64,000 nt of DNA from a virus. Taxonomy: Duplodnaviria > Heunggongvirae > Uroviricota > Caudoviricetes. Made by a program: the position numbers and the translations under genes. Location: IMG/VR virus record IMGVR_UViG_3300021140_000485. One strand, 5' to 3'. Positions 13,588-51,992 of the stretch are shown one piece after another. The first letter of the stretch is position 1, and each line of letters begins with the position of its first letter. The notes beneath the pieces were generated by a model that was not told the DNA's origin, searched no databases, and worked only from the letters and a program-made list of their open reading frames with translations.

Positions 13588-13677
13588 ATTAGTATAAATA
13601 TTAAAATTGTTAGTGGTTCCAGTAAATTAACGTAAGGGTAATATTGAATCATCTTACCTTCTATATGTCCAATCATA

Positions 13678-14868: not shown

Positions 14869-14896
14869 CCCCACCGTTAAGTGGGGTTCAAGATTA
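14869..14896 (-). terminator. Intrinsic terminator (CCCCAC-cgttaa-GTGGGG, a perfect stem) with a U-run on the minus strand.
   Basis: Lies at the 3' end of the cyclophilin gene. Confidence 0.65.
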
Positions 14897-18733: not shown

Positions 18734-18772
18734 AGGACAAAGGTAAAATAAAATATAGATTAAATCAAAAAA

Positions 18773-22164: not shown

Positions 22165-23404
22165 AAATGTAATTCATTACTTGTTCTTGTTTATAGTATT
22201 TTTTGATTGGGACACTGTTTTGGAACTTTTGTGAGTGTTGTGTAATCTCATCCCAATTCCAATCAAAATAACCCATTTCTTCAATTCTGTCGTGTATTCT
22301 TTTATCATAGAAGTCCCTGATTAATCTGGCCCTACGATTAATATCTGTTGCATTATTATCAACTGTTGAGTTGTTATTGTTGTATTGTAGATATAACACC
22401 TTCTTTACGTGAATCATCTTGGTTTCTAAAAATGTACGAATAAGAATCTCCAAGTCATCAGCAACAGGTGTTAATTTATTGTGTCCTGAAATATTATGAT
22501 AAACACTTCTCTCCCACATTCTAGCGTGGTTTGGCATTGTGATATTGAATCTAATTGTGAGTGGGTTTACATCAGGGTACCAATGAGCAAGTCTATCAAC
22601 ACCGTCAACATTTACCCAACTGTGTCCAGCATACCCAAAGTCAAAATAGTTATCGTGACGAGCATACCAATTACCAGTCCAATCGTGGTCATAAAACTTA
22701 GGTTCACCGTCCTCGTATATCTCTGAACAATCAGTATAAAGAAATCCCGCGTCAGGGTATTTTAATATTGCATCATTAGCGGTTTCAAGACAAGTTGTAA
22801 CCAAACAATCATCGTGGTCCAATTCAATCAACCAATCACCATCACCTAACATAGCTGCACGATGTTTAGCCAAACCAATATTACCACCCGATAATGGATA
22901 AATCCTGTGAGGTTTTACCCGATAGTCTTTCTCCGCAATTTCAGTTATCATCTCCCAAGTTTCAGGGTCAGGCGAATCATCAACCACAACCCATTCCCAA
23001 TTATCAAAGGTTTGGTTGTTTAAAGACTCATAAGTCCTATAAATCCTTTCTCCTGTTTTGTAGGTTGGTGTGAAAATTGTAAATCTTGGTCTAAAATATT
23101 CACAGTTTCTAAACACAGTCTGACAAACAATTACGTTCGCCAAAATTGCTTCATCAATCGGTTCATCATAGTGAATGTGAAATCTTTTCAAATGATAGTG
23201 TGGGATGTTTACTTCTTCACCAAAACTTATAATTAAGTCAGGTTTATATTTTGTATAATCACCAACGACATCGTTTGTATATGGTAGATTATAAACAACA
23301 ACATCATCAAACAGATGTTCTTCCCAGTATATTTGTGAGATTAAGGTTGTTTCACCTTCCGTACCTAATCCATACACTATTGCTGACGGTTTTTTTGTCT
23401 TCAT
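22157..23404 (-). CDS. Family-2 glycosyltransferase with an N-terminal extension.
   Basis: 'FTIFTPTYKTGERI', 'WVVVDDSPD' and 'IELDHDD' (DxD). Confidence 0.75.
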   Translation of the reverse strand: MKTKKPSAIVYGLGTEGETTLISQIYWEEHLFDDVVVYNLPYTNDVVGDYTKYKPDLIISFGEEVNIPHYHLKRFHIHYDEPIDEAILANVIVCQTVFRNCEYFRPRFTIFTPTYKTGERIYRTYESLNNQTFDNWEWVVVDDSPDPETWEMITEIAEKDYRVKPHRIYPLSGGNIGLAKHRAAMLGDGDWLIELDHDDCLVTTCLETANDAILKYPDAGFLYTDCSEIYEDGEPKFYDHDWTGNWYARHDNYFDFGYAGHSWVNVDGVDRLAHWYPDVNPLTIRFNITMPNHARMWERSVYHNISGHNKLTPVADDLEILIRTFLETKMIHVKKVLYLQYNNNNSTVDNNATDINRRARLIRDFYDKRIHDRIEEMGYFDWNWDEITQHSQKFQNSVPIKKYYKQEQVMNYIYE

Positions 23405-24798: not shown

Positions 24799-24863
24799 AT
24801 GTGTGTGTATTTGTTTTTAACACTACAAAGATAGTGATATTATCCAAACTGCCAAAACTTTTT

Positions 24864-26219: not shown

Positions 26220-27170
26220 TTCTGGCACTTAGGTTGAGAATACACCTTCGATTAAGAATCTTTAGGGACATTATTGTTTCTTCCCGTTTCCACTACCTTT
26301 TGAGTAGTAATTCTTAGTGACGGTTCCTTAGGGGTACCATTCCTTGAGTCGTGCGGTTACTCTCTTTGTACTTGTTACTCTCCGAGGTTGCCACCCCAGT
26401 GAATCCTTGCGGGATTAGAGAACTTTCTCAAGAATCATTTGGGTCTTGGGAACCCATAATGGCAATGAACATCTCATTACTATGTAGTCACCTTTCGCCT
26501 ACGACTGACAGACACTTTTCCTTCGTCTTTTAGTATTTGCATACTTCAAAATGCAAAGTTGTTGGTCTGTGGATGGTGAAAGTAGCGGTCTGCCAACCAG
26601 ACAAGCCATCTTTTGAACGACTCGATACTGAACTACTCTCTGAGATATCCCTACCTCGATACTTCAAGAAATCTTCATAATTAAAATCTTGGTAGATTCT
26701 AACTAAGGTTACCAACAGCACCACCTGTACGATAACATGACTTTCGTCTTTAAGACACCTCTGATATTGAATCCCGTGATTGTAAAGTTGGATGACTTTA
26801 CTTCTCACAACAATTCTACGAGTTATTCTTATTGTTCTTCCGAACTCAACTCAACGACCCACATCGCTGAGTCATCATTCCATTTTGTCTACAGTGTCAC
26901 CCTCGACTACTCAGGAACAATGATATCCCGCTTGCCTACTCGAGCTCTAAGAACCGAAGTTCAAAGAACCGCAGTCTCCGTTAACCTTCGGAGACCACTT
27001 TATCCCACTTTCGTGGTTTATTTATTGACCATAGGCGGCCAATTATCTTATTTACTAACCTGTTGGTTAGAAGGATAATCAAATATGTAAAAGAACGTGT
27101 TTCGTTAATTGTTTCACAAAGTTAAGAAGATTATTTTAATCTGTCAAGCACTTTGTAAAAGTTTTTTTTG
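26220..27170 (-). ncRNA. Candidate structured noncoding RNA or 3' trailer co-transcribed with tRNA-Met. About 950 nt, elevated GC, no ORF longer than 113 aa in any frame.
   Basis: Bounded by the tRNA (5' side on the minus strand) and a strong terminator (3' side). The frame-track ORFs here are short and non-protein-like. Identity unknown. Confidence 0.3.
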
Positions 27171-27244
27171 TTGCGGGAGTCGGACTCGAACCGACGGCCT
27201 CAAGGTTATGAGCCTTGCGAGCTACCAACTGCTACCACCCCGCG
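27171..27244 (-). tRNA. tRNA-Met (anticodon CAU), initiator-like.
   Basis: Reverse complement reads 'CGCGGGGTGGTAGCAGTTGGTAGCTCGCAAGGCTCATAACCTTGAGGCCGTCGGTTCGAGTCCGACTCCCGCAA'. It shows a cloverleaf, a C1·A72 mismatch, a GTCGG/CCGAC T-stem and TTCGAGT T-loop, the anticodon loop CTCATAA, and no encoded CCA. Confidence 0.85.
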
Positions 27245-27474
27245 ATATATTTTAAAGAACGTGATTCGAAAAAAAATCCCAAAACTTATATCCTCTCGAA
27301 CACTCATTTTGGGATTTGGGGTTTGAGGATTCTACTCCTCTTCTTCCGAGTGTCTCACAAACTTACGAACAAATTTTGGACTTGTCAAATTGTTTATGAA
27401 ACTTTTTTTGGGGGTATTATCTACCTTTCGGTAGAGTTTTATAAATATATGCTAAAATTGGAAAAAACCAAGTC

Positions 27475-31465: not shown

Positions 31466-31492
31466 TTAAAAAGAAAACCCCCACTTTTTTAG
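31466..31492 (-). terminator. Conserved-family terminator ('AAAACCCCCAC-tttttta-GTGAGGGTT').
   Basis: Overlaps the stop of the methyltransferase gene, with a minus-strand U-run. Confidence 0.6.
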
Positions 31493-32358
31493 TGAGGGTT
31501 CTGATTGTTGAAATCGATGACTTGTTGTCTTCGTTGTTCTACGAATAACCCGACTCTGTCTCGAGCCACTTTAGAATAGTTTGGACTCAGTTCAATACCA
31601 ATCCATCTTCTGTCAAGTGTCTCAGCGGCGACCAAACTTGTACCTGAACCTGCGAATGGGTCAAGAACAATGTCATTCTTATACGTAAGAATTTTGATTG
31701 CCTTGGTTGGAATATCCATTGAGAACGTGGCTTTAGTTAGACTTCGTGTGTCAGCAAAGTATTTCCACTGTCCGAAAACCAAATCGATGAACTCACGTTT
31801 TTGTTGTTCCGTATACATCATCTTTGGTCTCATATTACCATCCTTACCTTCTACTTCTCCCATTTCGCCAGTCCATTCAGGTTGACCTTTTACTTTCTTA
31901 ATGTGTTTGTTTTTGTATGCCAAAATAACACATTCTTTTGGGTTATAGATGTAAGGGGCTGAAGGGCTCATCCAAGACCCCCAAGCCGTGGTACGACTTC
32001 TATGTGGTGATTCTTCTTCAAGGTCAACAACTCCGAAGAATTTGTAACCAATCTGTTTCATAATCTGCCACACTTCACTGACCATAAAGATTCTACCTCC
32101 TTTATCCTGACGGTTGATTTCGTATGGGATGTTAAGAGCAATCCTACCATCATCTTTCAATACACGGTATGCTTGTTCCATCCACGAATATGTAAATTTT
32201 ACATATTCCTCCCAAACCATATCATCTTCGTGAACATCATAATCGATACCAACACCATAAGGTGGTGATGTAACAATCAGGTCCACTGAACCTTCAGGCA
32301 TCGAAGCCATCACTTCAATACAATCTCCATTAATTACTCTTCCAATTAAATCTTCCAT
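31489..32358 (-). CDS. DNA methyltransferase (N6-adenine/N4-cytosine, beta-class motif order).
   Basis: Motif IV 'DLIVTSPPYG' near the N-terminus and motif I 'LDPFAGSGTS' near the C-terminus. Confidence 0.8.
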   Translation of the reverse strand: MEDLIGRVINGDCIEVMASMPEGSVDLIVTSPPYGVGIDYDVHEDDMVWEEYVKFTYSWMEQAYRVLKDDGRIALNIPYEINRQDKGGRIFMVSEVWQIMKQIGYKFFGVVDLEEESPHRSRTTAWGSWMSPSAPYIYNPKECVILAYKNKHIKKVKGQPEWTGEMGEVEGKDGNMRPKMMYTEQQKREFIDLVFGQWKYFADTRSLTKATFSMDIPTKAIKILTYKNDIVLDPFAGSGTSLVAAETLDRRWIGIELSPNYSKVARDRVGLFVEQRRQQVIDFNNQNPH

Positions 32359-32359: not shown

Positions 32360-33529
32360 TTATAATCCTAAAATTTCAAGGGTTTTATTCACTCTACTTT
32401 GTGGTGACAAGTTTCTTTCATAATACTCCCTTGCGTTTTTAGAAATATAACTTAAAAATTCGTGGTCATCAACAACCTCTTTGAATCTTTCCTCAATCAT
32501 TTTTACGTGGTGAGGTCCTGATAGTCGGTCACTGGCAACTCCATTGTGTCTTGGCATATCATCAGGATATGGAACAGAAATGTAATGTACGTTTGGAATT
32601 AACTTTTCGTGCATTTCAACTTGGAACTCAAATCTAATCAATGGCATTCCAATCGCCATACATTCAATGTCTCTATAACAAAGTTCTCCCACTCCTGCCA
32701 TAGACAACGACACTTGGTAATCTATCATATCATTGAAGTATGCTTCAGGGGTTGTTGGTGTTTCGGGACAATACAACAACTCATCCGAGAAATGTTTTAA
32801 AGCGGGTCTTTGTGAAACATTACCTCTGAAATACATTAAAGGTACTTTGTTTTGAACGTGTTTTCTTTTGTGATAAAACTGTTCCAAGTCAATCAAACCA
32901 GATGGGAAATAAATCCAAGGTGAGTATTTGTCATAGTTATTATCAACGTGGTGTTTAATCTTGTAATCAATGAACTGTGAAATCAAAACCTTCTTACATA
33001 AAGGATTGTGTTTCTCATTCATAGTTGCGTAACCCAAGTCATCAGAGACACTCATAATCCAAAACTCACCAGAGTCAGCATCTTCAATAACATATTCACA
33101 CTCCAACAATAAGAATTCTTTGGCAAGACCTTTTTTTAATTTAATTTCTTGTCTGTCAAAGTGAGCATTCTCAAAATGCCTGTTCTCAATAACCTCATAT
33201 CGTTCTGATAGTTCTTGGGTTAACTCATCCCAAAATAAATTGTAATTACGATAGTATCGAGTTTTGTCATTTGTTGGGTTATGGATTATCAGTCTACGAT
33301 GAGGTTTATCACCATTTCCACTTTTATTCTGAACCTCACGGTTGAGATACCATAGAGCTTTATTCAAATCTTGAAGTTCCTTGTCAGTCCCCTTTTTACC
33401 TGCCCTTGAAATATATTTTACAGTATTCCCAAGATTAAATCCTAAGTCCCAAGCTTCAATAACTTTTATTGCTTCATATGGATTATTCTTTCCCCCATAA
33501 TGTTGAGGGTGATTTACTTGTTCACTCAT
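32360..33529 (-). CDS. DUF3310-domain protein with a C-terminal domain of roughly 300 aa and unknown (possibly transferase-like) function.
   Basis: 'HPQHYGGKNNPYEAIKVIEAW.....GNTVKYISRAGKK....AL...WYL' fits the DUF3310 pattern. Confidence 0.65.
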   Translation of the reverse strand: MSEQVNHPQHYGGKNNPYEAIKVIEAWDLGFNLGNTVKYISRAGKKGTDKELQDLNKALWYLNREVQNKSGNGDKPHRRLIIHNPTNDKTRYYRNYNLFWDELTQELSERYEVIENRHFENAHFDRQEIKLKKGLAKEFLLLECEYVIEDADSGEFWIMSVSDDLGYATMNEKHNPLCKKVLISQFIDYKIKHHVDNNYDKYSPWIYFPSGLIDLEQFYHKRKHVQNKVPLMYFRGNVSQRPALKHFSDELLYCPETPTTPEAYFNDMIDYQVSLSMAGVGELCYRDIECMAIGMPLIRFEFQVEMHEKLIPNVHYISVPYPDDMPRHNGVASDRLSGPHHVKMIEERFKEVVDDHEFLSYISKNAREYYERNLSPQSRVNKTLEILGL

Positions 33530-33532: not shown

Positions 33533-34696
33533 TTAATCGTTATAAATTGAACCACTTTTATTTTCAGACTCTTCGAATTGATGTTGTTCCATAATATCTT
33601 TAAGTGGTGATTTTTGAGTATCAACTTTAGTATTCATATTATGAATAATCTTATCAAGAGTTAATGCAAAGTCCAGAGTTTCGGATATGATACCAACAAT
33701 TTTATATGGGTCACCATTTGATGCCGGTCTACGGTCTTCAACATAACCCTTCCATTCTTTTGATGTAGACAATGGAACTCTGATTGATGCACCTCGGTCA
33801 GCAACCCCCCAACTAAACTTGTCAATAGATTGGGTTTCGTGTTTACCAGTCAAACGAAGATTGTTATCAGAACCGTAATTGTTAATGTGTAACTGATGAC
33901 GTGAATCAAAGGCGTTAAAGATGTTTTTGAAGTATTCATCACCACCTTCATTTCTCATCTTGTCATTTGAGAAGTTACAGTGTAATCCTGAACCATTCCA
34001 ATCACCCATCACAGGTTTAGGGTGGAATTCAATCTTAAAACCATAGTCCTCAGACATTTGTTGTAAAATGTATCTCGACATCCACAAATCATCACCGGCC
34101 TTTAATTTACCTTTGGAGAATACCTGGTACTCCCACTGACCCAATAAGACCTCGGCGTTTGTACCTGTAATTTCAATACCTGCCAAGATACAATTTTCCA
34201 TATGAGTATCCACAAATTTTCTACCGTTAACTTGTCCGTTACCTACACCACAATAGTATTTTCCTTGTGGTTCAGGATATCCATTCTCAGGGAAACCCAA
34301 AGGTCTACCATCTTTCATAATGGTATACTCTTGTTCAAAACCAAACCAAAGGTCCTCTTCTTCTTCCCCAACAAGACTTCTTGTATTTGATACGTGTGGA
34401 GTCCCATCGGGATTCATAACCTCACACAACACCAAGAAAGACCATAGACCACCTTCGTTAAGTGAGTTGTGATAAACTCTAACAGGTTTCAAAATACAAT
34501 CAGAAAAATGTCCGTCAGCTTGTTGTGTTGATGAACCATCAAAACTCCACTCAGGGCAATCCTTCAGTGTTATAATATCCCCATATGGAATATTCTGAAG
34601 ACCAGTCTCTTCTTTTTCAATCACCTTAACCTTACTTCTAAGATTAGGTTCTGGCTGATACCCATCCAACCACACATATTCTAATTTAACTTTCAT
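33533..34696 (-). CDS. Glutamine synthetase type-II-like protein.
   Basis: 'LEYVWLDG', 'FDGSSTQQADG..SD..L.PV', 'LVLCEV', 'GVADRGASIRVP' and 'NGDPY' are colinear with the GSII beta-grasp and catalytic domains. Confidence 0.75.
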   Translation of the reverse strand: MKVKLEYVWLDGYQPEPNLRSKVKVIEKEETGLQNIPYGDIITLKDCPEWSFDGSSTQQADGHFSDCILKPVRVYHNSLNEGGLWSFLVLCEVMNPDGTPHVSNTRSLVGEEEEDLWFGFEQEYTIMKDGRPLGFPENGYPEPQGKYYCGVGNGQVNGRKFVDTHMENCILAGIEITGTNAEVLLGQWEYQVFSKGKLKAGDDLWMSRYILQQMSEDYGFKIEFHPKPVMGDWNGSGLHCNFSNDKMRNEGGDEYFKNIFNAFDSRHQLHINNYGSDNNLRLTGKHETQSIDKFSWGVADRGASIRVPLSTSKEWKGYVEDRRPASNGDPYKIVGIISETLDFALTLDKIIHNMNTKVDTQKSPLKDIMEQHQFEESENKSGSIYND

Positions 34697-34701: not shown

Positions 34702-34893
34702 TTAATTTTCTTTTTTTACAACGTAGTAACCTTTGGAATAACTAGACTCCTCAATCAATCCTTCATCCATTAGTTTATTTAATTTAACTTCAGTTTCATT
34801 TTCAGTCTCTTTCAAAATGTATTTTGAAATGTAACTGATGTGAATTGGTTGTCTCAACTTAGAAAGTAGTGTCTTGAGCGTCTTGTCTTCCAT
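34702..34893 (-). CDS. Hypothetical small protein.
   Basis: 63-aa ORF. Confidence 0.4.
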   Translation of the reverse strand: MEDKTLKTLLSKLRQPIHISYISKYILKETENETEVKLNKLMDEGLIEESSYSKGYYVVKKEN

Positions 34894-34895
34894 AA

Positions 34896-35123
34896 TTAAT
34901 AATCTAAAAATTTATCATTGTCTTCCAAAAATTCTAAAAATGGGTGGTCATAATCCATATCAACCCATTTTCCTTTATTTCCATCCCATATCAAATATTC
35001 ATCTGAGATATTTGTTCGGGTATATTTAAGTTCAAAAGTTTTACCCTTATCATCCTTGACCTTATATTGAGTTGTATAAGAGAATGATAGTTCTTCTGGT
35101 GGACCTACAATTGAGTATTTCAT
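34896..35123 (-). CDS. Hypothetical small protein.
   Basis: 75-aa ORF. Confidence 0.4.
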   Translation of the reverse strand: MKYSIVGPPEELSFSYTTQYKVKDDKGKTFELKYTRTNISDEYLIWDGNKGKWVDMDYDHPFLEFLEDNDKFLDY

Positions 35124-35344
35124 TTCTTTTTCTTTTTGTACTTTTTCTCAACACCCTCCGTTTTTTCTTTTTTCTTAACTTCGGTAATGATTGGAGCAAC
35201 TCGTCCATCTTCTTTCCATTCGTTCTTTGGAATGAACTTCCAATAACCCGTTGAAACTCGTTGGTCCGCAACCTTGTCTTCAACGCGCATAATTCGTCCC
35301 ACCTCGTACTGAGATGTTTCTTTGATAGCTTTAATGCATTTCAT
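35120..35344 (-). CDS. Hypothetical small protein with a poly-Lys tail.
   Basis: 74 aa. Preferred over the overlapping ORF 35062..35283. Confidence 0.4.
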   Translation of the reverse strand: MKCIKAIKETSQYEVGRIMRVEDKVADQRVSTGYWKFIPKNEWKEDGRVAPIITEVKKKEKTEGVEKKYKKKKK

Positions 35345-35546
35345 TTTTAGTAGTATTAGATTTTAAGTTAAATGTAGTAATGATTTCTTGTTCTGACAAA
35401 TTCTTCTCATAAAGTTTATAAACTTTGCTTGAAAACTCATCCATAAAGATGATTGCGTCAGCCTTACCATAGAGACCGTCCAAATTGTATTTGTATAAGT
35501 AATGTAAGGTTGTTTGTTCTGAAATGTATCGTCTGTGAAAACCCAT
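35331..35546 (-). CDS. Hypothetical small protein.
   Basis: 71 aa. Preferred over the overlapping ORF 35363..35566. Confidence 0.35.
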   Translation of the reverse strand: MGFHRRYISEQTTLHYLYKYNLDGLYGKADAIIFMDEFSSKVYKLYEKNLSEQEIITTFNLKSNTTKNEMH

Positions 35547-35555
35547 ATCACAAAA

Positions 35556-36341
35556 TTACGAAACAATTTTTAAATTATCAAAATTTTCTAACTTTTCTTT
35601 TGGGACACTTTGAAGAATATATGAAAGAAGTTTTCTTTTCGCCATTGGGATAAGCGTCTCTTCAAAAGGGAAATGTTGTCTTGATTGAAACTCAAACACA
35701 GGTAATTTACTTTGGTACACGTCTTGTTTCCAATTTGTAGATTCATTAATTATTTGATTAACTGTTCTACCATCAGTAACTCCTGAAAAAATAGACTCAA
35801 GATGTAATTTAGAGTCTTTTGACTTTTTTATCTTTCTTATTGAGTACTCCCAAATGTATAACTCTTTTTCAGGTTTACGAGTATAAACTAAGTACCCATA
35901 ACCTTTGTGTAAGTAGTTCTTATTTTTTTTATGTTGTATATCTGTAGATTCGTAAACAATAGACCATATGGATTTACCAATACTGAAAACATCCATAAGT
36001 TTTGAGTTTGAGTAATATAAAGTTTTCTTTAATTCTAAACTTTGGTCTTCATTTAGATTAGGTAATTTTTTTGGGTATAATTCTTTCAATAGAATTTCAT
36101 CATCACAAGTTTCGAATTTTTTATTCGTAAGTAATAATGTATTTTCTCGATTAATTGATTGGACATTAGCTAAATGAAGTGAAATCTCGACAAAATCAGG
36201 GTATATCTTATAATCGTCAAAACTACTCTCACATTTTTGTATGTAATCTAATAGCGTATATTTGTTATACTCAAAATCTATTGGTTCCTGAAACATCCAT
36301 TCAGGACTCAACTTAAATTGTGTTTTTCTCTTTCTTCCCAT
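35556..36341 (-). CDS. Hypothetical protein.
   Basis: 261-aa ORF. Confidence 0.5.
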   Translation of the reverse strand: MGRKRKTQFKLSPEWMFQEPIDFEYNKYTLLDYIQKCESSFDDYKIYPDFVEISLHLANVQSINRENTLLLTNKKFETCDDEILLKELYPKKLPNLNEDQSLELKKTLYYSNSKLMDVFSIGKSIWSIVYESTDIQHKKNKNYLHKGYGYLVYTRKPEKELYIWEYSIRKIKKSKDSKLHLESIFSGVTDGRTVNQIINESTNWKQDVYQSKLPVFEFQSRQHFPFEETLIPMAKRKLLSYILQSVPKEKLENFDNLKIVS

Positions 36342-36371
36342 TTACTAAATGATAATTAAAAAGAAAATTTA

Positions 36372-38123
36372 TTAAAGTTTTATAATGTAATAAGTCTCTC
36401 CTTGGACGGTCTCTTCGTGAACCGCCCCATCATTGTGTGACATCATATCATAACTCTCATTATCGATAACAGTATCTATAAATTTTTCCTTATCAATAAA
36501 ATCATCTAATTCTAATCCGTAATCCTCCGCGTATCCAGTTGGGTTGTATCTAACTTCATCCAACTTACTTTCAATCATATTTTCAATATCATCGTCTGAA
36601 AAATCACCTTCAGGATTTTCTTCTATTTCTTCTTTTTGTTCTTCTAATTCAGTAATATAGTCTTCCAATTGACTAATTCTATCGTCAATTTTATCAACCT
36701 TATCTTCATCATCAATCCCATATTTAATTTTTTCAAGTCTTTCTATCTCCCTTTGTGTTTGTAAAACTCTAGCGTCAATAATTTTAATAGTTTCAACTTG
36801 TTTTGAATCTAATTGTCTTTGGGAATCGTCTAAATAAGCATCAGGCTCTTGGTAAACGTCCTGATTGAAATAATCATCAAACCAATTAAGTATTTCATCC
36901 TCATTAACCGCATTATCCTTAACCCAACTAGCAAACCCATCATACCCTTCAGTATCAACCATATCCTCAACATACTCTCTCAACGCATCATCCATCTCCG
37001 TCTCGGTACCCACAGTATATTCATCACCATATAGTTCAGTTGCAAATTTTTGCATTCCATAGTGTTGGGATTCCAAAGGTATTAAATCGTAAACGTCTTT
37101 ATATTCTTTAAACTCATCTAACTCTTCTTCTAATTGTTCAATCTGAGATAATAAATCATACCTTACAGTATCAGAATTTTCATATTCTTCTTGAAGTTCA
37201 CTTATTCTTTCTAAAATATCCGTTCTTCTTTCTTCATCATCTTCACTCATAGATTCGATTTCTCCCTCTGAAACCAAATAATCAAAAAGTGCGTGTGCCA
37301 TCAATCCTATAGTTGGGCAATCAGGACCTAACTCCCACTCTTTATCAATTCTTCGTTCATTTGCTTCTTCCATAGACAATCTTTTTTCTTGAGCAATCCT
37401 TTTTTCTTGTTCTTTTTTATCAATATCAGTCTTTGTTATGTAGTAATCTAAATTACTCATTTTGTCTTCATATTTTCTCTCAAGAAAACTAATAATAAAC
37501 GAATACACAACATTAAAGTTTGGTATAGAATTTAAAACATCCTCCATACCAACTCTCACATTTTTAACATAAAAATAAGGTTTGGAGTTTCTAACAAAAA
37601 CAATTGTTATTTTTTCCTCAGGATTATTTTTATTAATTAAATAGACAATTTTTTTGTCCCCATATTCCCCATATGTTATGTTAAACGAGTTTTCACTACT
37701 AACGTCGACACATCCTACAGAATCTTTACCATAATAACAAGCGCCTGATTGGGTAGATGGTGAAACAATCAATAATTTATCATCTTCAAATATTATGGAC
37801 TTGTTATTGGTAGTGGTCATATTGTTTAGATATTGACCGGTAAAACTATCTATTTGGTTTTTTAAATCTTCATATGAACCAAACTTATTAATGTCAGTTG
37901 TTTGTAAAACACCTTTAAGTCTTTCAAATTTCTGTGTCAAATCAATAATATTAATTAAGTTAATATTATCCCCTTCTTCAGGGAATTTGTTTGCAACCCA
38001 ATCCCAATACTCAGGTTGGATGTATTTTACTATTGACGATAAGAGTGGTAAACTCAGTTTGTCCTTATATTTTGTTGTAAAATCAGACTTACTTTGTTCT
38101 TTTAATAACTTACGGATTGACAT
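36372..38123 (-). CDS. Large acidic hypothetical protein (Asp/Glu-rich C-terminal half).
   Basis: 583-aa ORF. Confidence 0.6.
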   Translation of the reverse strand: MSIRKLLKEQSKSDFTTKYKDKLSLPLLSSIVKYIQPEYWDWVANKFPEEGDNINLINIIDLTQKFERLKGVLQTTDINKFGSYEDLKNQIDSFTGQYLNNMTTTNNKSIIFEDDKLLIVSPSTQSGACYYGKDSVGCVDVSSENSFNITYGEYGDKKIVYLINKNNPEEKITIVFVRNSKPYFYVKNVRVGMEDVLNSIPNFNVVYSFIISFLERKYEDKMSNLDYYITKTDIDKKEQEKRIAQEKRLSMEEANERRIDKEWELGPDCPTIGLMAHALFDYLVSEGEIESMSEDDEERRTDILERISELQEEYENSDTVRYDLLSQIEQLEEELDEFKEYKDVYDLIPLESQHYGMQKFATELYGDEYTVGTETEMDDALREYVEDMVDTEGYDGFASWVKDNAVNEDEILNWFDDYFNQDVYQEPDAYLDDSQRQLDSKQVETIKIIDARVLQTQREIERLEKIKYGIDDEDKVDKIDDRISQLEDYITELEEQKEEIEENPEGDFSDDDIENMIESKLDEVRYNPTGYAEDYGLELDDFIDKEKFIDTVIDNESYDMMSHNDGAVHEETVQGETYYIIKL

Positions 38124-38210
38124 TATTTTTTATTTGATAAATACTTTGATTGATTTATATTTCTACAAGTTTACTATTTATATGTAATAAAACTCCAATA
38201 CTACAAAATT

Positions 38211-38363
38211 ATGGGATGTGGTTGTAAAAACAAAGCAAACAACAGTACTAACACTCAATCAAGTCAACAACAGACTCAAGCAACCGCTCAAAGAGCTCAG
38301 TATGTTCAAGAGACTGTTAAAGATGCCATTAAGAAAACAGTTGAGAAATATTACAAACGTTAA
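38211..38363 (+). CDS. Small protein (50 aa) 'MGCGCKNKANNSTNTQ...', with its own terminator.
   Basis: Manual translation. A perfect hairpin plus T-run follows the stop after 27 nt. Confidence 0.4.
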   Translation: MGCGCKNKANNSTNTQSSQQQTQATAQRAQYVQETVKDAIKKTVEKYYKR

Positions 38364-38389
38364 GTTGTAATATGTTAGTAAAATTAAAA

Positions 38390-38414
38390 GGGTGAAGAAA
38401 TTCACCCTTTTTTT
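38390..38414 (+). terminator. Intrinsic terminator (GGGTGAA-gaaa-TTCACCC followed by a T-run).
   Basis: Perfect 7-bp stem. Confidence 0.7.
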
Positions 38415-38424: not shown

Positions 38425-39447
38425 GTGATGACAGGGAAATTACAAAGATTAATCGACGATGTTAATAATGGTAAATTTGATATTATCAAAGATTTTTTTG
38501 GTGATATGGAAACTTTTTTGGACTATCTTGGTAAAAAAGGTTTGATACACGAATTAGACCTTATTAACAACGAAGAAGAATTCGAATATGAAGTTAACAA
38601 AATAGCCCTCGCAATTAAAGAACATAATCCCGAAAAATTTAGAGAATATGTTTTATCTTCATTAAGTGATGTTACTTATGAAAATGGTGAATACTATGTG
38701 ACTTTGAATGATAAAAGTAGACTCGCGTATCTTTTTTGTGATGATAGAAGAAATGGTATGTCTCAATCAACAATATCAGAGATACTAGATGGTGAATGGG
38801 ATTTTGATTTTTGGGATACTACCGATAATGTTTATAGGGATGTTATTCAAGAACTAAATAAGGATAATCTTACTTATTTATCAAAAAAAATAAGTAACGA
38901 ATTATCTGACGTTAAGGTAGAACCTGAAACAGAATTGTTAGAAGAAATTGCCGAGGAACAAGGTCATCCTGAATATGTAACCTTAACCCCCGAGTTGATT
39001 CACGACAGAATATTCAATGATGAGGATTCAACAGAAAGTATTTTGAATGAAACCGAAAACATTAAATCAGATTTACACTCATTACATAACAGAGCATATG
39101 CAAATGCTTATGAAGATGAGGTGTATAGTGGTATAATGGATGAACTTGAAACATTTTTTGATATGCGCCATTCTGATTGGATAACAGTTCCAAGTAGTGT
39201 AAACCCAAACAAATCTTATACCTATTTCAAAGTTAAAATAAATAATTTTGATTCAGAGATTTCCGATTACCTTAATAACGCGAAGAATCATAATGAACCA
39301 TTAAGTAATTATGGTGACTATCTTAGTATTTTGAGTGAAAATATTAGTTATGGTAGTGCCAATTGTTTGGTATATTACACGCCTGATTATGCGGATTGGC
39401 CAAAAACAAAAGAAAATATTAACGAACTTTTTGGTGACTATTTTTAA
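38425..39447 (+). CDS. Acidic hypothetical protein.
   Basis: 340-aa ORF. Confidence 0.55.
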
Positions 39448-42400
39448 ATAATCCCCTTTAGTTTAGCTTTATCCAAAACTTTTTTAGCTCTCTCTTCAAG
39501 AGATGTTATTCTAACCTCTTGTTCTTTTAACGCTTCAATGTTAACGGCAATCATTTCTTTATAATTCATTGTTAACACTTTACCTTCAGTATAAATAACT
39601 TCAGGAACATAAGGCAAAACTTCTTGAGCAATAAATCCAATAGCTTTTTTGTCATTAGAACTATATTCTTTACCTCTCCATTTAAATGTGACACCTCTAA
39701 TACTTAATATCTTATTTAGAGCATCACCGATAGGTTTAACATCTTTTTTCAGTCTTTCATCTGAAGGACCTGTTGGTCCTTGTGGACCTTGAGCTCCTTG
39801 TGCTCCGAATGTTGAACTAGCACCTCCTTGAGCCCCTGGTGCTCCTTGTGCCCCTGTTGGACCTGGTGTTGCAGAACCTTGAGCACCTGTTGGTCCTTTA
39901 AGACCTGTAGGTCCTTGTGCACCGACGGCTCCCTCAAAACCTTGTGAACCTTGAGCTCCTTGAGCCCCTGTTGCACCTTGTGCACCTTGTGGTCCATTAG
40001 GAGACGTTGGCCCTTGAGCCCCTTGAGCTCCTTGAGCTCCAATAGCACCTGAATTTCCTTGAGCGCCTTGAGCACCTTGAGCGCCGGCTGTACCTGAACC
40101 TTGAGCACCTTGAGGTCCTGTTGGTCCTGTTGCACCTTGAGGTCCTGTTGGTCCTGTTGCACCTTGAGCACCTTGAAATCCTTGACCCCCTGTAGGTCCT
40201 ACGGCTCCTTGTGAACCTTGAGCCCCTTGAGGTCCTGTTGGTCCTGTTGCACCTTGAGCTCCTTGAGCTCCAACAGGTCCTTGAGCACCTGTGGCTCCTT
40301 GGAATCCCTGCTGACCATTAGGTCCTATTCCACCTACGTCCCCTTGAGCACCTTGCGCTCCTTGGAATCCTTGTCCTCCTGTTGCTCCTTGAGACCCTTG
40401 AGCACCTGTTCCTCCTTGAGCTCCCTGAAAACCTTGTCCTCCTTGCGCCCCTTGTGGACCTTGAGCTCCTGTGGCACCTTGAGCACCTTGAGCTCCCTGC
40501 CCACCTTGCGCTCCTTGTGGACCTATTGCTCCTTGGAAACCTTGTGCTCCTTGAAAACCTTGTCCTCCTTGAGCCCCTTGAGTTCCTGTTGCTCCTTGAG
40601 CACCTTGAGCCCCTTGTGCTCCCTGTCCTCCTGTTGCGCCTTGAGCTCCTTGTGCTCCTTGTCCTCCTGTTGCTCCTTGGACTCCTTGTCCACCTGTTGC
40701 TCCTTGCGCACCTTGGTTACCAACAGCACCTTGAGCTCCTTGGAAACCTTGAGCCCCCTGACCTCCTTGTGCACCTTGTACTCCAACAGCACCTTGAGCC
40801 CCTTGTGCTCCTTGGAAACCTTGTCCTCCTTGAGCACCTTGAGTACCTGATATACCTACAGAACCTTGAGAACCTTGAGCCCCTTGTCCTCCTTGAGCAC
40901 CTTGAGTTCCTGATACACCTTGAGCTCCTTGAGCCCCTTGGAAACCTTGACCTCCTTGAGCACCTTGAGTTCCTGTTGTACCTTGAGCCCCTTGAGCTCC
41001 TTGAAAACCTTGTCCTCCTTGAGCTCCTTGGGTTCCTGTTGCTCCTTGAGCTCCTTGAGCTCCTTGAGCTCCTTGGAAACCTTGAGCACCTTGGGTTCCT
41101 GTTGCACCTTGAGCCCCTTGAGCTCCTTGGAAACCTTGACCTCCTTGAGCCCCTTGGGTTCCTGTCGCTCCTTGTGCACCTTGAGCTCCTTGTGCTCCCT
41201 GTCCACCCTGAGCACCCTGAGTTGCTGTCGCTCCTTGCGCTCCTTGAGCTCCTTGAGCTCCTTGACCACCTTGAGCACCTTGGTTACCAACTGCCCCTTG
41301 TGAACCTTGAGCCCCTTGTGCTCCTTGTCCACCTTGGGCTCCCTGATTACCTTTAGCCCCTTGAGCTCCTTGCGCCCCTTGGGCTCCTTGACCACCTTGA
41401 GCACCTTGGTTACCAACTGCCCCTTGTGAACCTTGAGCCCCTTGCGCTCCTTGTCCACCTTGCGCTCCTTGTCCACCTTGAGCACCTTGAGCCCCTTGTG
41501 CTCCTTGAGCACCTTGTCCTCCTTGAGCACCTTGTGTTCCCGTTGCACCTTGAGCACCTTGAGCTCCTTGGAAACCTTGTCCACCTTGAGCACCCTGTGT
41601 TCCTGTTGCTCCTTGAGCCCCTTGTGCTCCTTGGGCTCCTTGTCCACCTTGAGCACCCTGTGTTCCTGTTGCACCTTGAGCACCTTGTGCTCCTTGGGCT
41701 CCTTGTCCACCTTGGGCACCTTGGTTACCCTTTCCACCTTGAGCACCTTGTGCTCCTTGGGCCCCTTGTCCACCTTGAGCACCCTGATTACCTGTCGCAC
41801 CCTGAGCCCCTTGAGCTCCTTGAGCTCCCTGTCCACCTTGTGCACCTTGGTTACCAACCGCTCCTTGTGAACCTTGAGCTCCTTGAGCTCCTTGTCCTCC
41901 TTGGGCGCCTTGGTTACCAACCGCTCCTTGTGAACCTTGAGCTCCTTGAGCACCTTGTCCACCTTGAGCACCTTGATTACCTTTTCCACCTTGAGCGCCT
42001 TGAGCTCCTTGAGCTCCTTGTCCTCCTTGGGCACCTTGGTTACCAACCGCTCCTTGTGAACCTTGAGCTCCTTGAGCTCCTTGTCCACCTTGAGCGCCTT
42101 GATTACCTTTTCCACCTTGGGCGCCTTGAGCACCTTGAGCACCTTGTCCTCCTTGAGCCCCTTGGTTACCTGTTGCCCCTTGAGCTCCTTGTGCGCCTTG
42201 TGAACCTTGCCCTCCTGTTGCTCCTTGGGAACCTTGAGCTCCTTGGGCTCCTTGACTACCAACCGCTCCTTGAGCACCTTGGTTACCAGTATTACCCTGA
42301 GCACCTTGTCCTCCTTGGGCACCTTGATTACCTTGAGCGCCTTGTGGTCCAGCATTTACATTACCTTTCCATCCGGTAGAGTCTATTATTAATCCGTAAT

Positions 42401-42602
42401 TGTTTGTAACTGTATTAGCACTTAAATTTGTATTTTGTACTTGGAATATAGGTGCTGTCTTGGCAATTTTTAGATATGTTGTTGTTTGATTTACAACATA
42501 ATTCAATGTAGAACTAGAATATACCAAATCACTTCGAGTATTCCCCGAATCATAAAATTGTATTGTTATACTTGCAGGTACTATTATTATATTCTCAGCC
42601 AC
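39444..42602 (-). CDS. Collagen-like (Gly-X-Gln triplet) fibre protein with a C-terminal intramolecular-chaperone / peptidase S74 domain. Candidate tail fibre.
   Basis: About 290 uninterrupted G-x-Q triplets. The C-terminus '[12 protein letters not shown]....FKWR......GFIAQEV' matches the SDxRLK auto-cleaving chaperone signature. The N-terminal roughly 90 aa is non-repetitive. Confidence 0.85.
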
Positions 42603-45600
42603 GTAATTTTTCTTCTAATTCAGTTAATGATGTTTTAAGGACATCCATTCTTTTTTGATTTTCTTTTACAAAAGATACTCCAAGAGTAACAAGTAGTTCA
42701 TACTGTAAAGATTTATAACCAAACTTATCTTCCCAAACAATTTCAGGAAAATATTTTTCAACTTGTTGGGCGATAAAACCTATACTTCGTTTTTTAAGTA
42801 AATACTTTTCATTGTCTTTATACAATGAAAGTTGTGGTATATTTTCAACCCAATCAAAAGATACACCATTCATATTAACAACATCAATAGCTCTATCAAA
42901 TTTCTTGATGTTTTCTTTCAATCTTCTATCTGAAGGTGGCCCTTGAGGTCCTTGAGCACCTTGTGCTCCTTGTGGTCCCGTTTTACCAGCATTACCTTGA
43001 GCACCTTGAGCACCTTGTGGTCCTGTAACACTAGCACCTTGAGCTCCTTGAGAACCAGTACCTCCTGCAGGTCCTGTTGCACCTTGAGCTCCTTGGACTC
43101 CTTGTGGACCTGTCCCACCTGTAACAGCTCCTTGAGCGCCTTGTGCTCCTTGTGCCCCTGCAGCTCCTTTTCCTCCTTGAGCACCTTGTGCTCCTGTGGA
43201 ACCCTGAGTTCCGGCCTTTCCTGTTGCACCTGTAGCACCTTTTGGTCCCGATGGTCCTTGAGCTCCTGTTGGTCCTTGAGGTCCTCTTGACCCTTGTACA
43301 CCTTGTCCTCCTGTCTGACCTGCAGCACCTTGAGCCCCCTGTGTCGCACCCGCAGGTCCTTTTGTTCCTCCCGCACCTTGAGCACCTGTAGGACCTGGAC
43401 CTCCTGTAGGACCTGTCGCTCCTTGAGACCCTTGAGAACCTTGAGCTCCAGCGGGTCCTTGAGCACCTTGTGTAACACTCGGATTCCCTTGTGGTCCTTG
43501 TGAACCTGTTGCTCCTGTGGCACCCTGAGCTCCTTGGGTACCTCCTTGAGCACCTGTGGCTCCTTGTGGGCCTTGAGGTCCTTTTGCTCCTTGAGCTCCT
43601 TGAGGACCTCCTTGAGCCCCTATCGGACCTTGGGCTCCTTGAGCTCCTGTAGCACCTGTTGCACCTTGAGTACCTCCTGTAGCACCTTGGAATCCCTGAG
43701 GTCCTGTAGCACCTGTAGCACCCTGAGCCCCTTGAGGTCCTCCTTGTGCACCAACAGGTCCTTGAGCACCTGTAGCACCTGTAGCACCTGGAGCCCCTTG
43801 CGGAGTACCTTGTGGTCCTTGAGCACCTTGAGCTCCTGTTGGTCCTGTAGAGCCTGTTGCTCCTTGGACCGCTCCTTGAGCACCTTGATTACCAACAGCA
43901 CCTGTTTGTCCAGTCGCACCTTGTGCCCCTTGAGCACCTTGAGGTCCTCCTGGATTTCCCTGAGCACCTTGGGCTCCTTGTCCACCTTGAGCACCCTGTG
44001 CACCTGTTGGTCCTCCCTGTGCACCTGTTGGTCCTTGAGCACCTTGGGCTCCTTGAGCACCTTGTCCTCCTTGTACACCTCCTTGAGAACCTGTTGGTCC
44101 TTGAGCTCCTGTCGCACCTGTGGCACCTGTCGCTCCTTGCGTTCCTCCTTGAGCACCTGTTGGTCCTTGAGCCCCTGTTGCACCTGTGGCTCCTGTAGCC
44201 CCTTGAGGTCCTCCTTGTGCACCAACAGGTCCTTGAGCTCCTGTAGCTCCTGTGGCTCCCGTCGCACCCTGAACTCCACCTTGAGCACCTGTTGGTCCTT
44301 GAGCTCCTGTAGCTCCTGTGGCCCCTGTTGCACCCTGAACTCCACCTTGAGCACCTGTAGGTCCTTGTGCACCTGTTGTTCCATTAGCACCCGTTGCCCC
44401 CTGAACTCCACCTTGAGCACCTGTTGGCCCTTGTGCACCTGTTGTTCCATTAGCACCTTGAGCCCCTTGAGGTCCTCCTTGTGCACCTGTTGGTCCTTGG
44501 GCACCTGTTGTACCTTGAGCACCTTGAGCTCCTTGAGAAGCTCCTTGTGCTCCTTGTGAACCAACGGCTCCTTGAGCACCTTGTGCTCCCTGATTTCCCT
44601 GAACTCCACCTTGTGCTCCTGTAGGTCCTTGGGCACCTGTTGTACCTTGAGCACCTTGAGCCCCTTGAGAAGCCCCTTGAGCTCCTTGTGAACCAACGGC
44701 TCCTTGTGCACCCTGTGCTCCCTGATTTCCCTGAACTCCACCTTGTGCTCCTGTAGGTCCTTGTGCACCTGTTGTACCAGCGGCACCTGTTGCCCCCTGA
44801 ACTCCACCTTGAGCACCTGTAGGTCCTTGTGCTCCTGTGGCACCTGTCGCACCTGTTGCCCCTTGGACACCTCCTTGAGCTCCCGTACTACCTTGAGCTC
44901 CTTGAGCACCTGTCGTACCCTGAGCACCCTGAGAAGCACCTTGTGCACCTTGTGAACCAACGGCTCCTTGAGCACCTTGTGCTCCCTGATTTCCTTGGAC
45001 ACCACCTTGAGCTCCCGTAGGTCCTTGGGCACCTGTCGTACCTTGAGCACCTTGAGCACCTTGTGATGCACCTTGAGCTCCTTGTGAACCAACGGCTCCT
45101 TGAGCACCTTGTGCTCCCTGATTTCCTTGGACACCACCTTGAGCACCTGTTGTCCCTTGAGCACCTTGAGCTCCTGTCGCCCCTGTCGCTCCTTGCGTTC
45201 CTCCTTGAGCGCCCGTACTACCTTGGGCACCTTGGGCACCTGTGGCTCCTGTCGCTCCTTGTGTTCCTCCTTGAGCACCTGTACTACCTTGAGCACCTTG
45301 TGCCCCTGTCGTACCTTGAGCACCTTGTGAACCTCCTTGAGCACCTTGTGAACCAACGGCTCCCTGAGCACCTTGGGCTCCTTGTCCTCCTTGTGTCCCA
45401 CCTTGAGCACCTGTACTACCTTGAGCACCTTGAGCACCTGTCGTACCTTGAGCACCTTGTGAACCTCCTTGAGCTCCTTGTGAACCAACGGCTCCTTGAG
45501 CACCTTGTGCTCCCTGATTTCCTTGGACACCACCTTGAGCACCTGCAATACCTTGAGCACCTTGTGCCCCTGTTGTTCCTTGCGCCCCTTGAGACGCTCC

Positions 45601-46017: not shown

Positions 46018-46020
46018 ATA

Positions 46021-51946: not shown

Positions 51947-51992
51947 TATCTTACAAATTTAATAATAAATATACAATTAACCACAAATTATT

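Follow-up and report, generated by a model that had tools for sequence, protein, structure and literature searches.

A probably functional, bacterial-branch type II glutamine synthetase encoded by a large freshwater phage

The stretch of viral DNA analyzed here (64,000 nt, hereafter the window) encodes a type II glutamine synthetase (GSII; the window gene and protein are called GS below). Judged from its sequence, GS is probably a catalytically competent enzyme of the bacterial GSII branch that belongs to a large phage of Bacteroidota and serves to keep up the glutamine pool. Phage GS genes were already reported in 2025, so the existence of this one is no surprise and its interest is modest.

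The window gene encodes a protein of the GSII family

The 387-aa product proposed by the sequence-only reading corresponds exactly to an ATG-initiated ORF (Table 1), and the GSII motifs pointed out there were all located (EYVWLDG, aa 6-12; FDGSSTQQA, aa 52-60; RGASIRVP, aa 301-308). A Pfam search detected both GS domains (Gln-synt_N, 4.8e-10; Gln-synt_C, 9.5e-16), and the protein has the two-domain GSII architecture of a beta-grasp N-terminal and a catalytic C-terminal domain with a core of ~330-370 aa. The NCBIfam GlnII model (NF041605) matched at 388.7 bits (2.1e-116), aligning aa 1-342 with model positions 1-329 of 333. PDB sequence matches included yeast Gln1 (3fky) at 3.9e-101 and the S. 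coelicolor enzyme (4bax) at 4e-96; in the same search solved GSII structures matched at 1e-85 to 1e-101 and GSI structures at ~1e-11, while the NCBIfam models of GSI and GSIII scored 50.9 bits (cut-off 429) and 28.6 bits (cut-off 469.6), respectively. By these sequence comparisons, the window protein sides with GSII, and GSI and GSIII are both more distant. The GlnII score missed the equivalog cut-off of that model (500 bits), and chromosomal GSII proteins used as a control missed it too (Flavobacterium faecale, 367; Bradyrhizobium, 369; Leeuwenhoekiella, 393; Stieleria, 422; range 363-426). The missed cut-off was therefore dropped as an argument against GSII membership, since 500 bits cannot split true GSII from non-GSII here.

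The AF2 monomer model of GS (pTM 0.77) has the GSII fold: its top Foldseek match was 4bax (TM 0.73/0.81), and the top 50 PDB matches were all GSII (E 4e-32 to 1e-27). Because the active-site loops at aa 56-61, 140-154, 228-235 and 278-302 have pLDDT <50, as expected for interface loops, this model alone is no proof of an intact site. The label "eukaryote-like" initially given to the protein is misleading, as GS has more in common with the bacterial enzymes (51-60% identity among the GTDB matches listed) than with human GS (44%), and identity to solved eukaryotic GSII is 44-50%. Nor is GSII unusual in bacteria, as had been supposed, given that at least 599 GTDB species-representative stretches encode GS relatives and that the type is widespread among Bacteroidota and PVC bacteria.

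Table 1. Features of the GS locus and of the GS coding sequence, in window coordinates
Feature	Position	Strand	Basis or remark
Terminator-like hairpin, 12-bp stem + T run, at methylase gene end	31474..31502	-	consensus scan only
N6/N4 DNA methyltransferase, final gene of run	31489..32358	-	Pfam N6_N4_Mtase 1.2e-33; PHROG 67
DUF3310 (SaV-like) + GT-B-like glycosyltransferase fusion	32360..33529	-	3 nt after GS stop; Pfam DUF3310 aa 5-63
GSII-type glutamine synthetase gene (GS), 387 aa + stop	33533..34696	-	ATG-start ORF, Pfam, NCBIfam, PDB matches, Foldseek
GS C-terminal extension specific to viral clade, aa 343-387	33536..33670	-	alignments, AF2
GS catalytic domain, aa 105-342	33671..34384	-	Pfam PF00120; residues mapped onto human GS
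GS N-terminal beta-grasp domain, aa 5-96	34409..34684	-	Pfam PF03951; carries D53, S56
GS variable N-domain loop insertion, aa 27-45	34562..34618	-	pairwise alignment, ~11 aa longer than human GS
Four small ORFs (63, 75, 74, 71 aa) directly upstream of GS	34702..35546	-	no family match
Bacteroidota-type promoter-like motif TTTG-N-TAnnTTTG, upstream of small ORFs + GS	35551..35582	-	motif scan
Two genes, 261 aa + 583 aa, without functional assignment	35556..38123	-	ORFs
Second Bacteroidota-type promoter-like motif, ~80 nt before 583-aa gene	38204..38234	-	motif scan
Bidirectional terminator-like hairpin closing preceding unit	38386..38411	.	consensus scan

The active site is conserved throughout the viral family

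Residues were mapped onto human GS, the reference sequence being verified as identical to PDB 8dnu_A. The metal ligands of the window GS are E121, E123, E182, E189, H239 and E320; its catalytic domain further holds the arginines R281, R301, R306 and R322, together with Y148 and the flap residue E287, and D53 and S56, the equivalents of Asp50′ and Ser53′ that reach into the adjoining subunit's active site, are invariant in 120 of 120 relatives. The residues of the metal, ATP, glutamate and ammonium sites, N241 and S243 among them, make up the complete set of human GS and do not vary across the 120 relatives. Counted over functional positions, 24 of 26 are the same as in human GS, in the window protein as in all 120 relatives; the two departures are N246D, where D is the residue in 99% of cellular GSII, and K333W, at a position that varies between the human, yeast and Streptomyces enzymes. 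The Mn/Mg-binding Glu and His residues and the Asp50′ and Tyr residues that the sequence-only reading had singled out for inspection are all intact in the alignment, and the loss of multiple catalytic residues, which it had raised as a sign of an inactive homologue, was seen neither in the window protein nor in any of the 120 relatives.

The viral clade retains 115 of the 139 positions that are ≥90% conserved in cellular GSII and swaps near-invariant cellular residues in D77N, R80N and R213Q. The family core is 73-94% conserved, with drift in the tail and in the N-domain loop (family identity only 0.31, 27% gaps, pLDDT low to moderate). Comparison of orthologous sequences indicates that GS is under purifying selection (pN 0.18-0.30 vs pS 0.70-0.77). 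This is expressed as pN far smaller than pS and not as dN/dS, because the four assemblies with the exact protein are identical in their DNA and the next orthologues are saturated at synonymous sites.

GS lies in a tight run of phage genes

Collagen-like tail fibers lie to one side of GS and DNA methylases to the other, and the closely packed run of genes that holds it has terminator-like hairpins at both ends (Table 1). In the fusion protein encoded directly downstream, the C-terminal domain of ~310 aa is widespread on its own and sometimes joined to GLF or methyltransferases; an AF2 model (pLDDT 87) gave top Foldseek matches that were all GT-B glycosyltransferases. Directly upstream, the final small ORF stops 5 nt before the GS start codon, the same small genes were called in independent assemblies, and two of the four had no Pfam match. 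The 261-aa and 583-aa genes had no match in Pfam or PHROG and keep their position in relatives (syntenic genes in L005/L006 and L091/L092). The GC3 of GS (0.31) is similar to that of its neighbors, so GS was not recently imported.

The Bacteroidota promoter motif was found 11 times in the motif scan against 5.1 ± 2.4 expected, and none of 100 shuffles reached 11, while a scan for sigma-70 consensus promoters gave 37 against 38.4 expected from shuffles, that is, no enrichment. The Bacteroidota motif is also correctly placed. The copy before the 583-aa gene may mark the start of the transcription unit and the hairpin at the methylase gene its 3′ end, with the motif upstream of the small ORFs as a putative internal promoter. 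Around GS, Rfam revealed neither a glutamine riboswitch nor any other regulatory RNA.

The surroundings of GS bear on an alternative put forward together with the metabolic reading, namely that GS is a GS-like ligase for DNA or glycan modification. As a gamma-glutamyl-amine ligase it would glutamylate a polyamine, amino sugar or base, in concert with the adjacent glycosyltransferase fusion and methylase. Both partner genes do follow GS directly, the window also encodes glf and several GT2 genes (besides DnaJ, a sigma factor and an amidase), and the clade-specific substitutions and the novel tail could be accommodated by such a role. However, the GT domain adjoins GS only in the window's own sub-lineage, relatives having a methyltransferase-like gene or a short DUF3310 gene alone in its place. 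The known amine ligases of the GS superfamily are all GSI-like and none is a GSII. In GlnA3/PauA7 the ammonium site is changed from D50 to G, Y179 to A and E327 to W in GSI numbering (PMC5403932), and the residues that characterized ligases replace are kept in GS as D53, Y148 and E287, in 120 of 120 relatives. As this Asp/Tyr/Glu-flap trio is retained, GS is read as a working glutamine synthetase and not as a modification ligase. Placement within a non-GS amide-ligase family is likewise not what was found, the PuuA model (NF045547) scoring 30.9 bits against a cut-off of 650, and we consider a ligase role very unlikely.

A C-terminal extension is specific to the viral clade

In PDB and GTDB alignments cellular GSII stops near query aa 342-346, and the viral proteins continue into tails of 35-90 aa, along which family identity drops from 0.52 to 0.02; the first helix is conserved and the remainder is variable and acidic. 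AF2 predicts two helices, aa 330-355 and aa 365-379, and its confidence is low toward the terminus. Given an extension that occurs throughout the viral clade and is absent from cellular GSII, GS might be mainly a binding or regulatory protein, a decoy or sensor acting through its tail on host nitrogen signaling or defense, with catalysis secondary. The DUF3310 (SaV-like) gene that adjoins GS in 50 of 78 viral loci would fit such a role, SaV being an early phage protein that is toxic to L. lactis and E. coli and mediates sensitivity to AbiV abortive infection (PMC8306868), and GS moonlighting has precedent, in that the GS enzymes of some bacteria also have a regulatory function, as they do with GlnR/TnrA (PMC9249791). 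Yet over most of the tail both conservation and prediction confidence are low, the partner is only hypothetical, and the catalytic residues are all conserved across the 57-100% identity range of the clade, which is hard to explain other than by selection for catalysis. A mainly regulatory GS therefore appears quite improbable.

More speculatively, the tail, the substitutions D77N, R80N and R213Q and the persistent link to DUF3310/SaV-like genes raise the idea that the virus-only GSII may have escaped host feedback, its tail being re-wired to a phage or host partner in takeover or in a nitrogen- or nucleotide-linked counter-defense. We regard this as a long shot; if true, it would represent a coupling of catalysis to signaling of a kind not described for any GS.

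GS belongs to the phage and to a virus-only clade

Identical DNA around GS was present in four independent freshwater assemblies, and the exact same GS protein was encoded on 17 contigs (60 collection blocks read). Gene order around GS was kept in relatives at 77% and at 63% GS identity. At least 596 IMG/VR viral contigs, up to 304 kb among the matches listed, carry GS relatives, and phage GS has been reported elsewhere (PMC12619734; bioRxiv 10.1101/2025.02.27.640493), at odds with the earlier view that such genes are rare in phages. The NJ tree placed 96 sequences in a viral GS clade (bootstrap 89) with zero GSII from cellular genomes, so by sequence the viral GS genes form one clade of viral or metagenomic members only. 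The phylogeny that had been suggested for finding the donor lineage thus yielded a virus-only clade and did not resolve the donor, the sister-group bootstrap being ≤37. Among the GTDB matches listed, the closest cellular GSII were mostly from Bacteroidota and the highest identity of a representative to the window GS was ≤60%.

Since Bacteroidota and PVC genomes commonly carry GSII, a cellular gene mis-assembled or mis-binned into a viral contig as host DNA had to be weighed. This reading is effectively refuted by the identical flanks in independent assemblies, by synteny conserved in hundreds of viral contigs, by a clade that is exclusively viral or metagenomic, with no species-representative genome above 60% identity among the matches listed, and by a composition that matches the adjoining phage genes. 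On this sequence evidence, GS is a cellular-type metabolic gene that forms part of a genuine phage genome and is passed on with it.

Lake metagenomes contain the phage population of the window in abundance. Neither megablast with the 24 kb surrounding GS against 50,697 phage records nor tblastn of the 579-aa ORF against the phage records gave a match, so that record collection contains no close relative of the phage; only the 472-aa ORF and GS match the four huge-phage records. The longest contig of the window's own phage among the matches listed is 93 kb. The 304-kb IMG/VR contig was considered as a complete genome with a terminal repeat and dropped, as the 3.3 kb common to both ends are no more than 81% identical, which is not a clean repeat. 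We regard the carrier as a large, probably jumbo, freshwater phage. Its host is most likely a member of Bacteroidota, to which the promoter motifs, DnaJ, the sigma factor and the glycosyltransferases of the phage point, and a CHU_C/T9SS domain in a relative was counted toward the same host, as was the mainly Bacteroidota origin of the closest cellular GSII among the matches listed.

Proposed role of GS during infection

Because the catalytic, metal and ammonium-site residues are all intact, the sequence-only reading of GS as an auxiliary metabolic gene is the best one. By analogy with solved GSII, the subunits would form pentameric rings stacked as a decamer, each active site being built where the catalytic domain of a subunit meets the beta-grasp domain of the neighboring one. 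At the two-metal site (E121, E123, E182, E189, H239 and E320), ATP would phosphorylate the gamma-carboxylate of glutamate; ammonium would be bound and deprotonated by D53 of the neighbor with S56, Y148 and the flap E287, and the resulting ammonia would attack the acyl phosphate to give glutamine. GS would be co-transcribed with the adjoining phage genes from phage promoters, at a time in infection that we can only infer, and such transcription would place it outside host nitrogen control.

The enzyme likely serves to keep the glutamine pool at its level or to increase it during infection, with a presumed benefit for the phage. Purines, CTP, GMP, carbamoyl phosphate and amino sugars are all made with glutamine as amide donor, and the demand may come from building a ~200-300 kb genome and from a heavily glycosylating phage program. 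Among the ~60 ORFs scanned in the window there was no glutamine-amidotransferase or nucleotide-biosynthesis gene, and the tie to nucleotide and amino-sugar synthesis is therefore something we infer.

GS is the high-affinity route of ammonium assimilation, and the benefit of a true GS could instead lie in scavenging or detoxifying ammonium, or in re-assimilating nitrogen from degraded host macromolecules. The biochemistry would be the same as for glutamine supply, and published speculation on GS concerns nitrogen-limited aquatic habitats; the sequence, however, fits scavenging and supply alike, and we judge scavenging unlikely to be the main benefit. Should the GS be active, an abundant freshwater jumbo-phage lineage would provide its own ammonium-assimilating step to infected Bacteroidota, and a viral enzyme not subject to host regulation would carry part of the lake nitrogen flux in infected cells. 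The clade of viral GS is large (hundreds of contigs) and, at 57-100% identity, old.

Comparison with known systems

Bacterial GSII (S. coelicolor 4BAX, Bradyrhizobium GlnII and the chromosomal enzymes of Bacteroidota and PVC bacteria) shares with the window protein the two domains, a core of ~330-340 aa and the catalytic residues, and GlnII-model scores lie in one range (389 for the window, 363-426 for chromosomal proteins). In contrast, the viral protein has the C-terminal extension of 35-90 aa and the variable N-domain loop, and the viral gene stands in a phage transcription unit, falls into a separate virus-only clade and carries D77N, R80N and R213Q. Eukaryotic GSII (yeast Gln1 3FKY, human GLUL 8DNU/2OJW, maize GS1a 2D3A) shares fold and active site and is more distant than bacterial GSII; GS lacks the eukaryotic N-terminal extension, has its own C-terminal one, and in the comparison with eukaryotic and bacterial GSII gave no sign of a eukaryotic donor. 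The gamma-glutamyl-amine ligases (PuuA, GlnA2/3/4, PauA7, GmaS) have in common with GS the superfamily and the ATP-dependent acyl-phosphate chemistry, but they are GSI-like and without D50, Y179 and E327 (PMC5403932), all three of which have their equivalents in GS; glutamylation or amine ligation for DNA or glycan modification is accordingly the disfavored one of the two roles first proposed.

Among phages, 248 GS genes were reported from huge phages (bioRxiv 10.1101/2025.02.27.640493) and glnA from jumbo phages (PMC13037316). The GS of the 735-kb phage LR756501 lies outside the viral clade of the window, with 70% identity to Cytophagales GSII, as do those of the 642-kb LR756502 and the 635-kb LR745206, which form a distinct pair; from their sequences, the GS of LR756501 and that of LR756502/LR745206 look like separate acquisitions. 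The moraphages are aquatic jumbo phages of 200-307 kb with Bacteroidota hosts, 9 of 25 of which carry GS (PMC12619734). Freshwater habitat and predicted host (Bacteroidota) agree with those of the window phage, and DnaJ, a sigma factor, several glycosyltransferases and GS are all encoded in the window; DnaK/HSP70 and glutaredoxin were found in a relative, and related viral contigs reach 304 kb among the matches listed. The window phage thus resembles moraphages, the likeness being drawn from gene content and published description and not from sequence. Phage GS has been read as a nitrogen auxiliary gene (PMC12619734; bioRxiv 10.1101/2025.02.27.640493), and whereas the moraphage and huge-phage papers list GS without its type, residues, phylogeny or extension, these are given here for the GS of the window.

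Identification and phage linkage of the glutamine synthetase gene

The ORF list of the window contains an ATG-started gene for a 387-aa type II glutamine synthetase (GSII), which confirms the observation of the sequence-only reading; the three GSII motifs quoted there are all found in the translation. Pfam placed both glutamine synthetase domains in the protein (Gln-synt_N at aa 5-96, and Gln-synt_C), and the NCBIfam GlnII model aligned aa 1-342 to its positions 1-329 of 333 with 388.7 bits (E = 2e-116), compared to just 29-51 bits for the GSI, GSIII and gamma-glutamylputrescine synthetase models. This score lies below the GlnII equivalog cut-off of 500 bits, a miss that is uninformative because chromosomal GSII from Flavobacterium faecale, Bradyrhizobium, Stieleria, Leeuwenhoekiella, an Akkermansiaceae MAG and others, used as controls, scored 363-426 bits. 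In a search of solved structures, 16/16 best matches were GSII, led by the yeast (3fky, 3.9e-101) and S. coelicolor (4bax, 4e-96) enzymes and followed by plant, insect and mammalian ones, with the first GSI structures at ~1e-11. The AlphaFold2 monomer model (pTM 0.77) likewise retrieved only GSII among its top 50 PDB matches (best, S. coelicolor GSII, TM 0.73/0.81), and its low-confidence segments are active-site and interface loops, as expected since a monomer was modelled.

The exact protein is indexed in 60 assembly-collection blocks, and the 17 contigs read, all ≤93 kb, came from JGI and ENA metagenomes. Four independent assemblies carried identical gene DNA with the same flanking genes, and relatives with 77% and 63% GS identity retained the gene order of the window, together with Peptidase_S74 tail-fibre parts, HSP70, ClpP, thioredoxin and glutaredoxin. 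In IMG/VR, a GS relative is encoded on at least 596 viral contigs, some of 170-304 kb; among the matches listed from 185,579 species-representative genomes no copy exceeded 60% identity to the window GS. The window is AT-rich (GC 0.30-0.38) with nearly all long ORFs on the minus strand, and the GS gene has a GC3 of 0.31, similar to its neighbours. Contamination or mis-assembly was dismissed given the identical flanks in independent assemblies, the kept synteny, the number of viral contigs and the like GC3. The gene is thus real, intact and phage-encoded, and the main interpretation of the sequence-only reading was right. Separately, the 304,365-bp contig IMGVR_UViG_3300031857_000005 has a GS copy near either end; over 3.3 kb the ends match each other with just 81% identity, which is not a clean terminal repeat, and the contig may join two related strains end to end or contain a diverged duplication.

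Active site and proposed role

To inspect the metal-binding, Asp50' and Tyr residues, as had been proposed, we aligned the window protein, along with 120 relatives from metagenomes, to human GS, whose sequence was verified as 100% identical to PDB 8dnu_A (residues 1-373); residue numbering and roles follow the mammalian, maize and Salmonella GS structures. All catalytic residues checked were kept, in the window protein and in 120/120 relatives alike: the metal ligands E121, E123, E182, E189, H239 and E320 (human E134, E136, E196, E203, H253 and E338), the substrate arginines R281, R301, R306 and R322 with N241 and S243, all as in human GS, and the ammonium site D53, S56 and Y148 with the flap residue E287, the equivalents of D50', S53', Y179 and E327 of GSI. 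The sole differences from human GS among the functional positions checked were N246D and K333W; D occupies the former position in 99% of cellular GSII, and the latter varies between the human, yeast and Streptomyces enzymes. Across 83 cellular GSII, 139 positions were ≥90% conserved, 115 of which hold the same residue in ≥90% of the viral clade; the true replacements in that clade are T23V, D77N, R80N, R213Q, L319V and T340S, none of which is known to be catalytic. Characterised glutamyl-amine ligases of GS type replace D50, Y179 and E327 (PMC5403932), and the window protein retains the equivalents of all three, which disfavours the glutamylation or amine-ligase function raised earlier as an alternative. 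A regulatory or moonlighting role exerted through the clade-specific C-terminal tail is unlikely and would leave the full conservation of catalytic residues unexplained, and we consider it very improbable that the viral GSII has been re-wired to bind a partner through its tail.

The evidence best fits a functional GSII, which would make glutamine from glutamate, ATP and ammonium. Transcription from phage promoters would place the enzyme outside host nitrogen control, and it may sustain the supply of amide nitrogen for nucleotides and amino sugars while a very large genome replicates, a purpose that is inferred. No amidotransferase partner for GS was found in the 64-kb window.

Evolution of the viral enzyme

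A neighbour-joining tree was built from 305 sequences, comprising the window protein, 12 metagenomic family members, 80 IMG/VR and 80 GTDB copies, 50%-identity representatives, three huge-phage copies and the human, yeast and Streptomyces enzymes. The window, its family and all IMG/VR copies formed one clade of 96 sequences (bootstrap 89) with no GSII taken from cellular genomes inside it; its sister group had bootstrap ≤37, the candidates being a marine gammaproteobacterial cluster and Bacteroidota. The GSII of huge phages LR756501, LR756502 and LR745206 fell outside this clade: that of LR756501 is 70% identical to a Cytophagales GSII, and those of LR756502 and LR745206 paired together. Large phages have therefore acquired GSII on more than one occasion. 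Between GS orthologues pN was 0.18-0.30 and pS, which is saturated, 0.70-0.77; family conservation was 73-94% in the core, 31% in the aa 21-40 stretch, where the variable loop of the N-domain lies, and 2-13% towards the end of the tail. These values point to purifying selection on the enzyme core.

Gene unit around GS and other elements of the window

GS starts 5 nt past the stop of a 63-aa ORF and stops 3 nt before the next gene, within a ~7-kb unit ordered as genes for 583 aa and 261 aa, four small ORFs, GS, a DUF3310 fusion and an N6/N4 methylase. The flanking hairpins and the promoters are consensus matches, so the operon around GS is a putative one. The second domain of the fusion (~310 aa) is common as a standalone protein, and at times fused to UDP-galactopyranose mutase or methyltransferases; its predicted structure (pLDDT 87) is that of a GT-B glycosyltransferase, similar to MshA, BshA and chlorovirus A075L. 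This domain adjoins GS solely in the window's sub-lineage; 50/78 viral loci have a short DUF3310 gene no more than 3 kb downstream of GS. DUF3310 is a domain of SaV, a lactococcal phage early protein toxic to L. lactis and E. coli (PMC8306868).

Elsewhere, GC jumps from ~33% to 48-56% with strong AT skew at 40-50 kb because of the collagen-like tail-fibre genes. The GOLLD RNA lies ~530 nt downstream of tRNA-Met on the same strand. The window UDP-galactopyranose mutase is 58% identical to glf annotated in Streptococcus suis phage records. The ligase, two phosphoesterases and kinase-like protein possibly form an RNA-repair set; the RNA ligase and AAA_33 genes are also close together in one relative. 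The metabolic-looking cargo at the left window end is unusual. An amidase and a NUDIX protein are also encoded.

Features of the window by position
Feature	Position	Strand	Remark
YceI-like protein, hexapeptide-repeat acyltransferase, BKACE (beta-keto acid cleavage enzyme)	58-2189	-	BKACE, 8.6e-61
Cytidylyltransferase	7950-8381		
T4 Rnl1-type RNA ligase, calcineurin-like phosphoesterase, AAA_33 kinase-like protein	10014-14556	-	RNA-repair-like genes
Third GT2 glycosyltransferase	11737-12456	-	8 kb from other two
Cyclophilin-type peptidyl-prolyl isomerase	14894-15343	-	
SPFH/Band-7 protein	16283-17137	-	
Second calcineurin-like phosphoesterase	18065-18733		
UDP-galactopyranose mutase, then two GT2 glycosyltransferases (one with TPR repeats)	19902-23404	-	Glycan-synthesis set
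GOLLD RNA, full-length	26231-26640	-	Rfam RF02032, 307.5 bits (gathering 150), E 4e-87, positions 1-416 of 416
tRNA-Met	27170-27244	-	
Bacteroidota-type promoter motif	27358-27389		Upstream of tRNA-Met
Terminator-like hairpins	31474-31502, 38386-38411		Flank the GS unit
DUF3310 (SaV-like) + ~310-aa domain fusion	32360-33529	-	Second domain without Pfam match
GSII	33533-34696	-	387 aa
Bacteroidota-type promoter motifs	35551-35582, 38204-38234	-	GS unit
Further examples of the motif	18738-18769, 24826-24856, 51954-51987	-	
Further example of the motif	8814-8847	+	
Collagen-like (Gly-X-Y) tail-fibre genes	39444-49284	-	3 consecutive, 1052/1140/1087 aa
Second DNA methyltransferase	51993-52877	-	Two in window
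Three-domain DnaJ homologue, full	53523-54458	-	Stressed for moraphages (PMC12619734)
RNA polymerase sigma factor	62651-63460	-	Stressed for moraphages (PMC12619734)

Host and comparison with known phages

Phage-collection records matching the window's 472-aa ORF or GS were only LR745206, LR756502 and LR756501/3, uncultured huge phages of 635-735 kb. The Bacteroidota promoter consensus TTTG-N17-23-TAnnTTTG was seen 11 times in the window versus 5.1 ± 2.4 expected (0/100 shuffles reached 11), mostly directly upstream of gene starts in matching orientation, and no enrichment of the sigma-70 consensus was detected in the window. Together with a CHU_C (type IX secretion) domain protein in one relative and the nearest cellular GSII, mostly from Bacteroidota among the matches listed, this suggests a Bacteroidota host. 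The 2025 moraphage report describes freshwater phages of Bacteroidota with a sigma factor, DnaJ/DnaK, glutaredoxin, several glycosyltransferases and GS (PMC12619734), a profile that the window and its relatives fit, with related contigs of up to ~300 kb. The window phage may plausibly be a moraphage, likened by gene content and probable host rather than by sequence.

GSII had been called unusual in bacteria and rare in phages, and neither claim holds. A scan of GTDB species representatives gave at least 599 confirmed GSII stretches, mainly from Bacteroidota and PVC among the matches listed. For phages, several reports describe GS in 9/25 moraphages (PMC12619734), 248 GS genes spread over 247 huge phages, of which 215 are freshwater or marine (bioRxiv 10.1101/2025.02.27.640493), and glnA in jumbo phages (PMC13037316). 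Phage GS is therefore already known, and the window adds one well-characterised case; relative to the portions consulted of the published reports, what is added here is the GSII type, the residue-level check, the virus-only clade, the C-terminal extension and the DUF3310 linkage.
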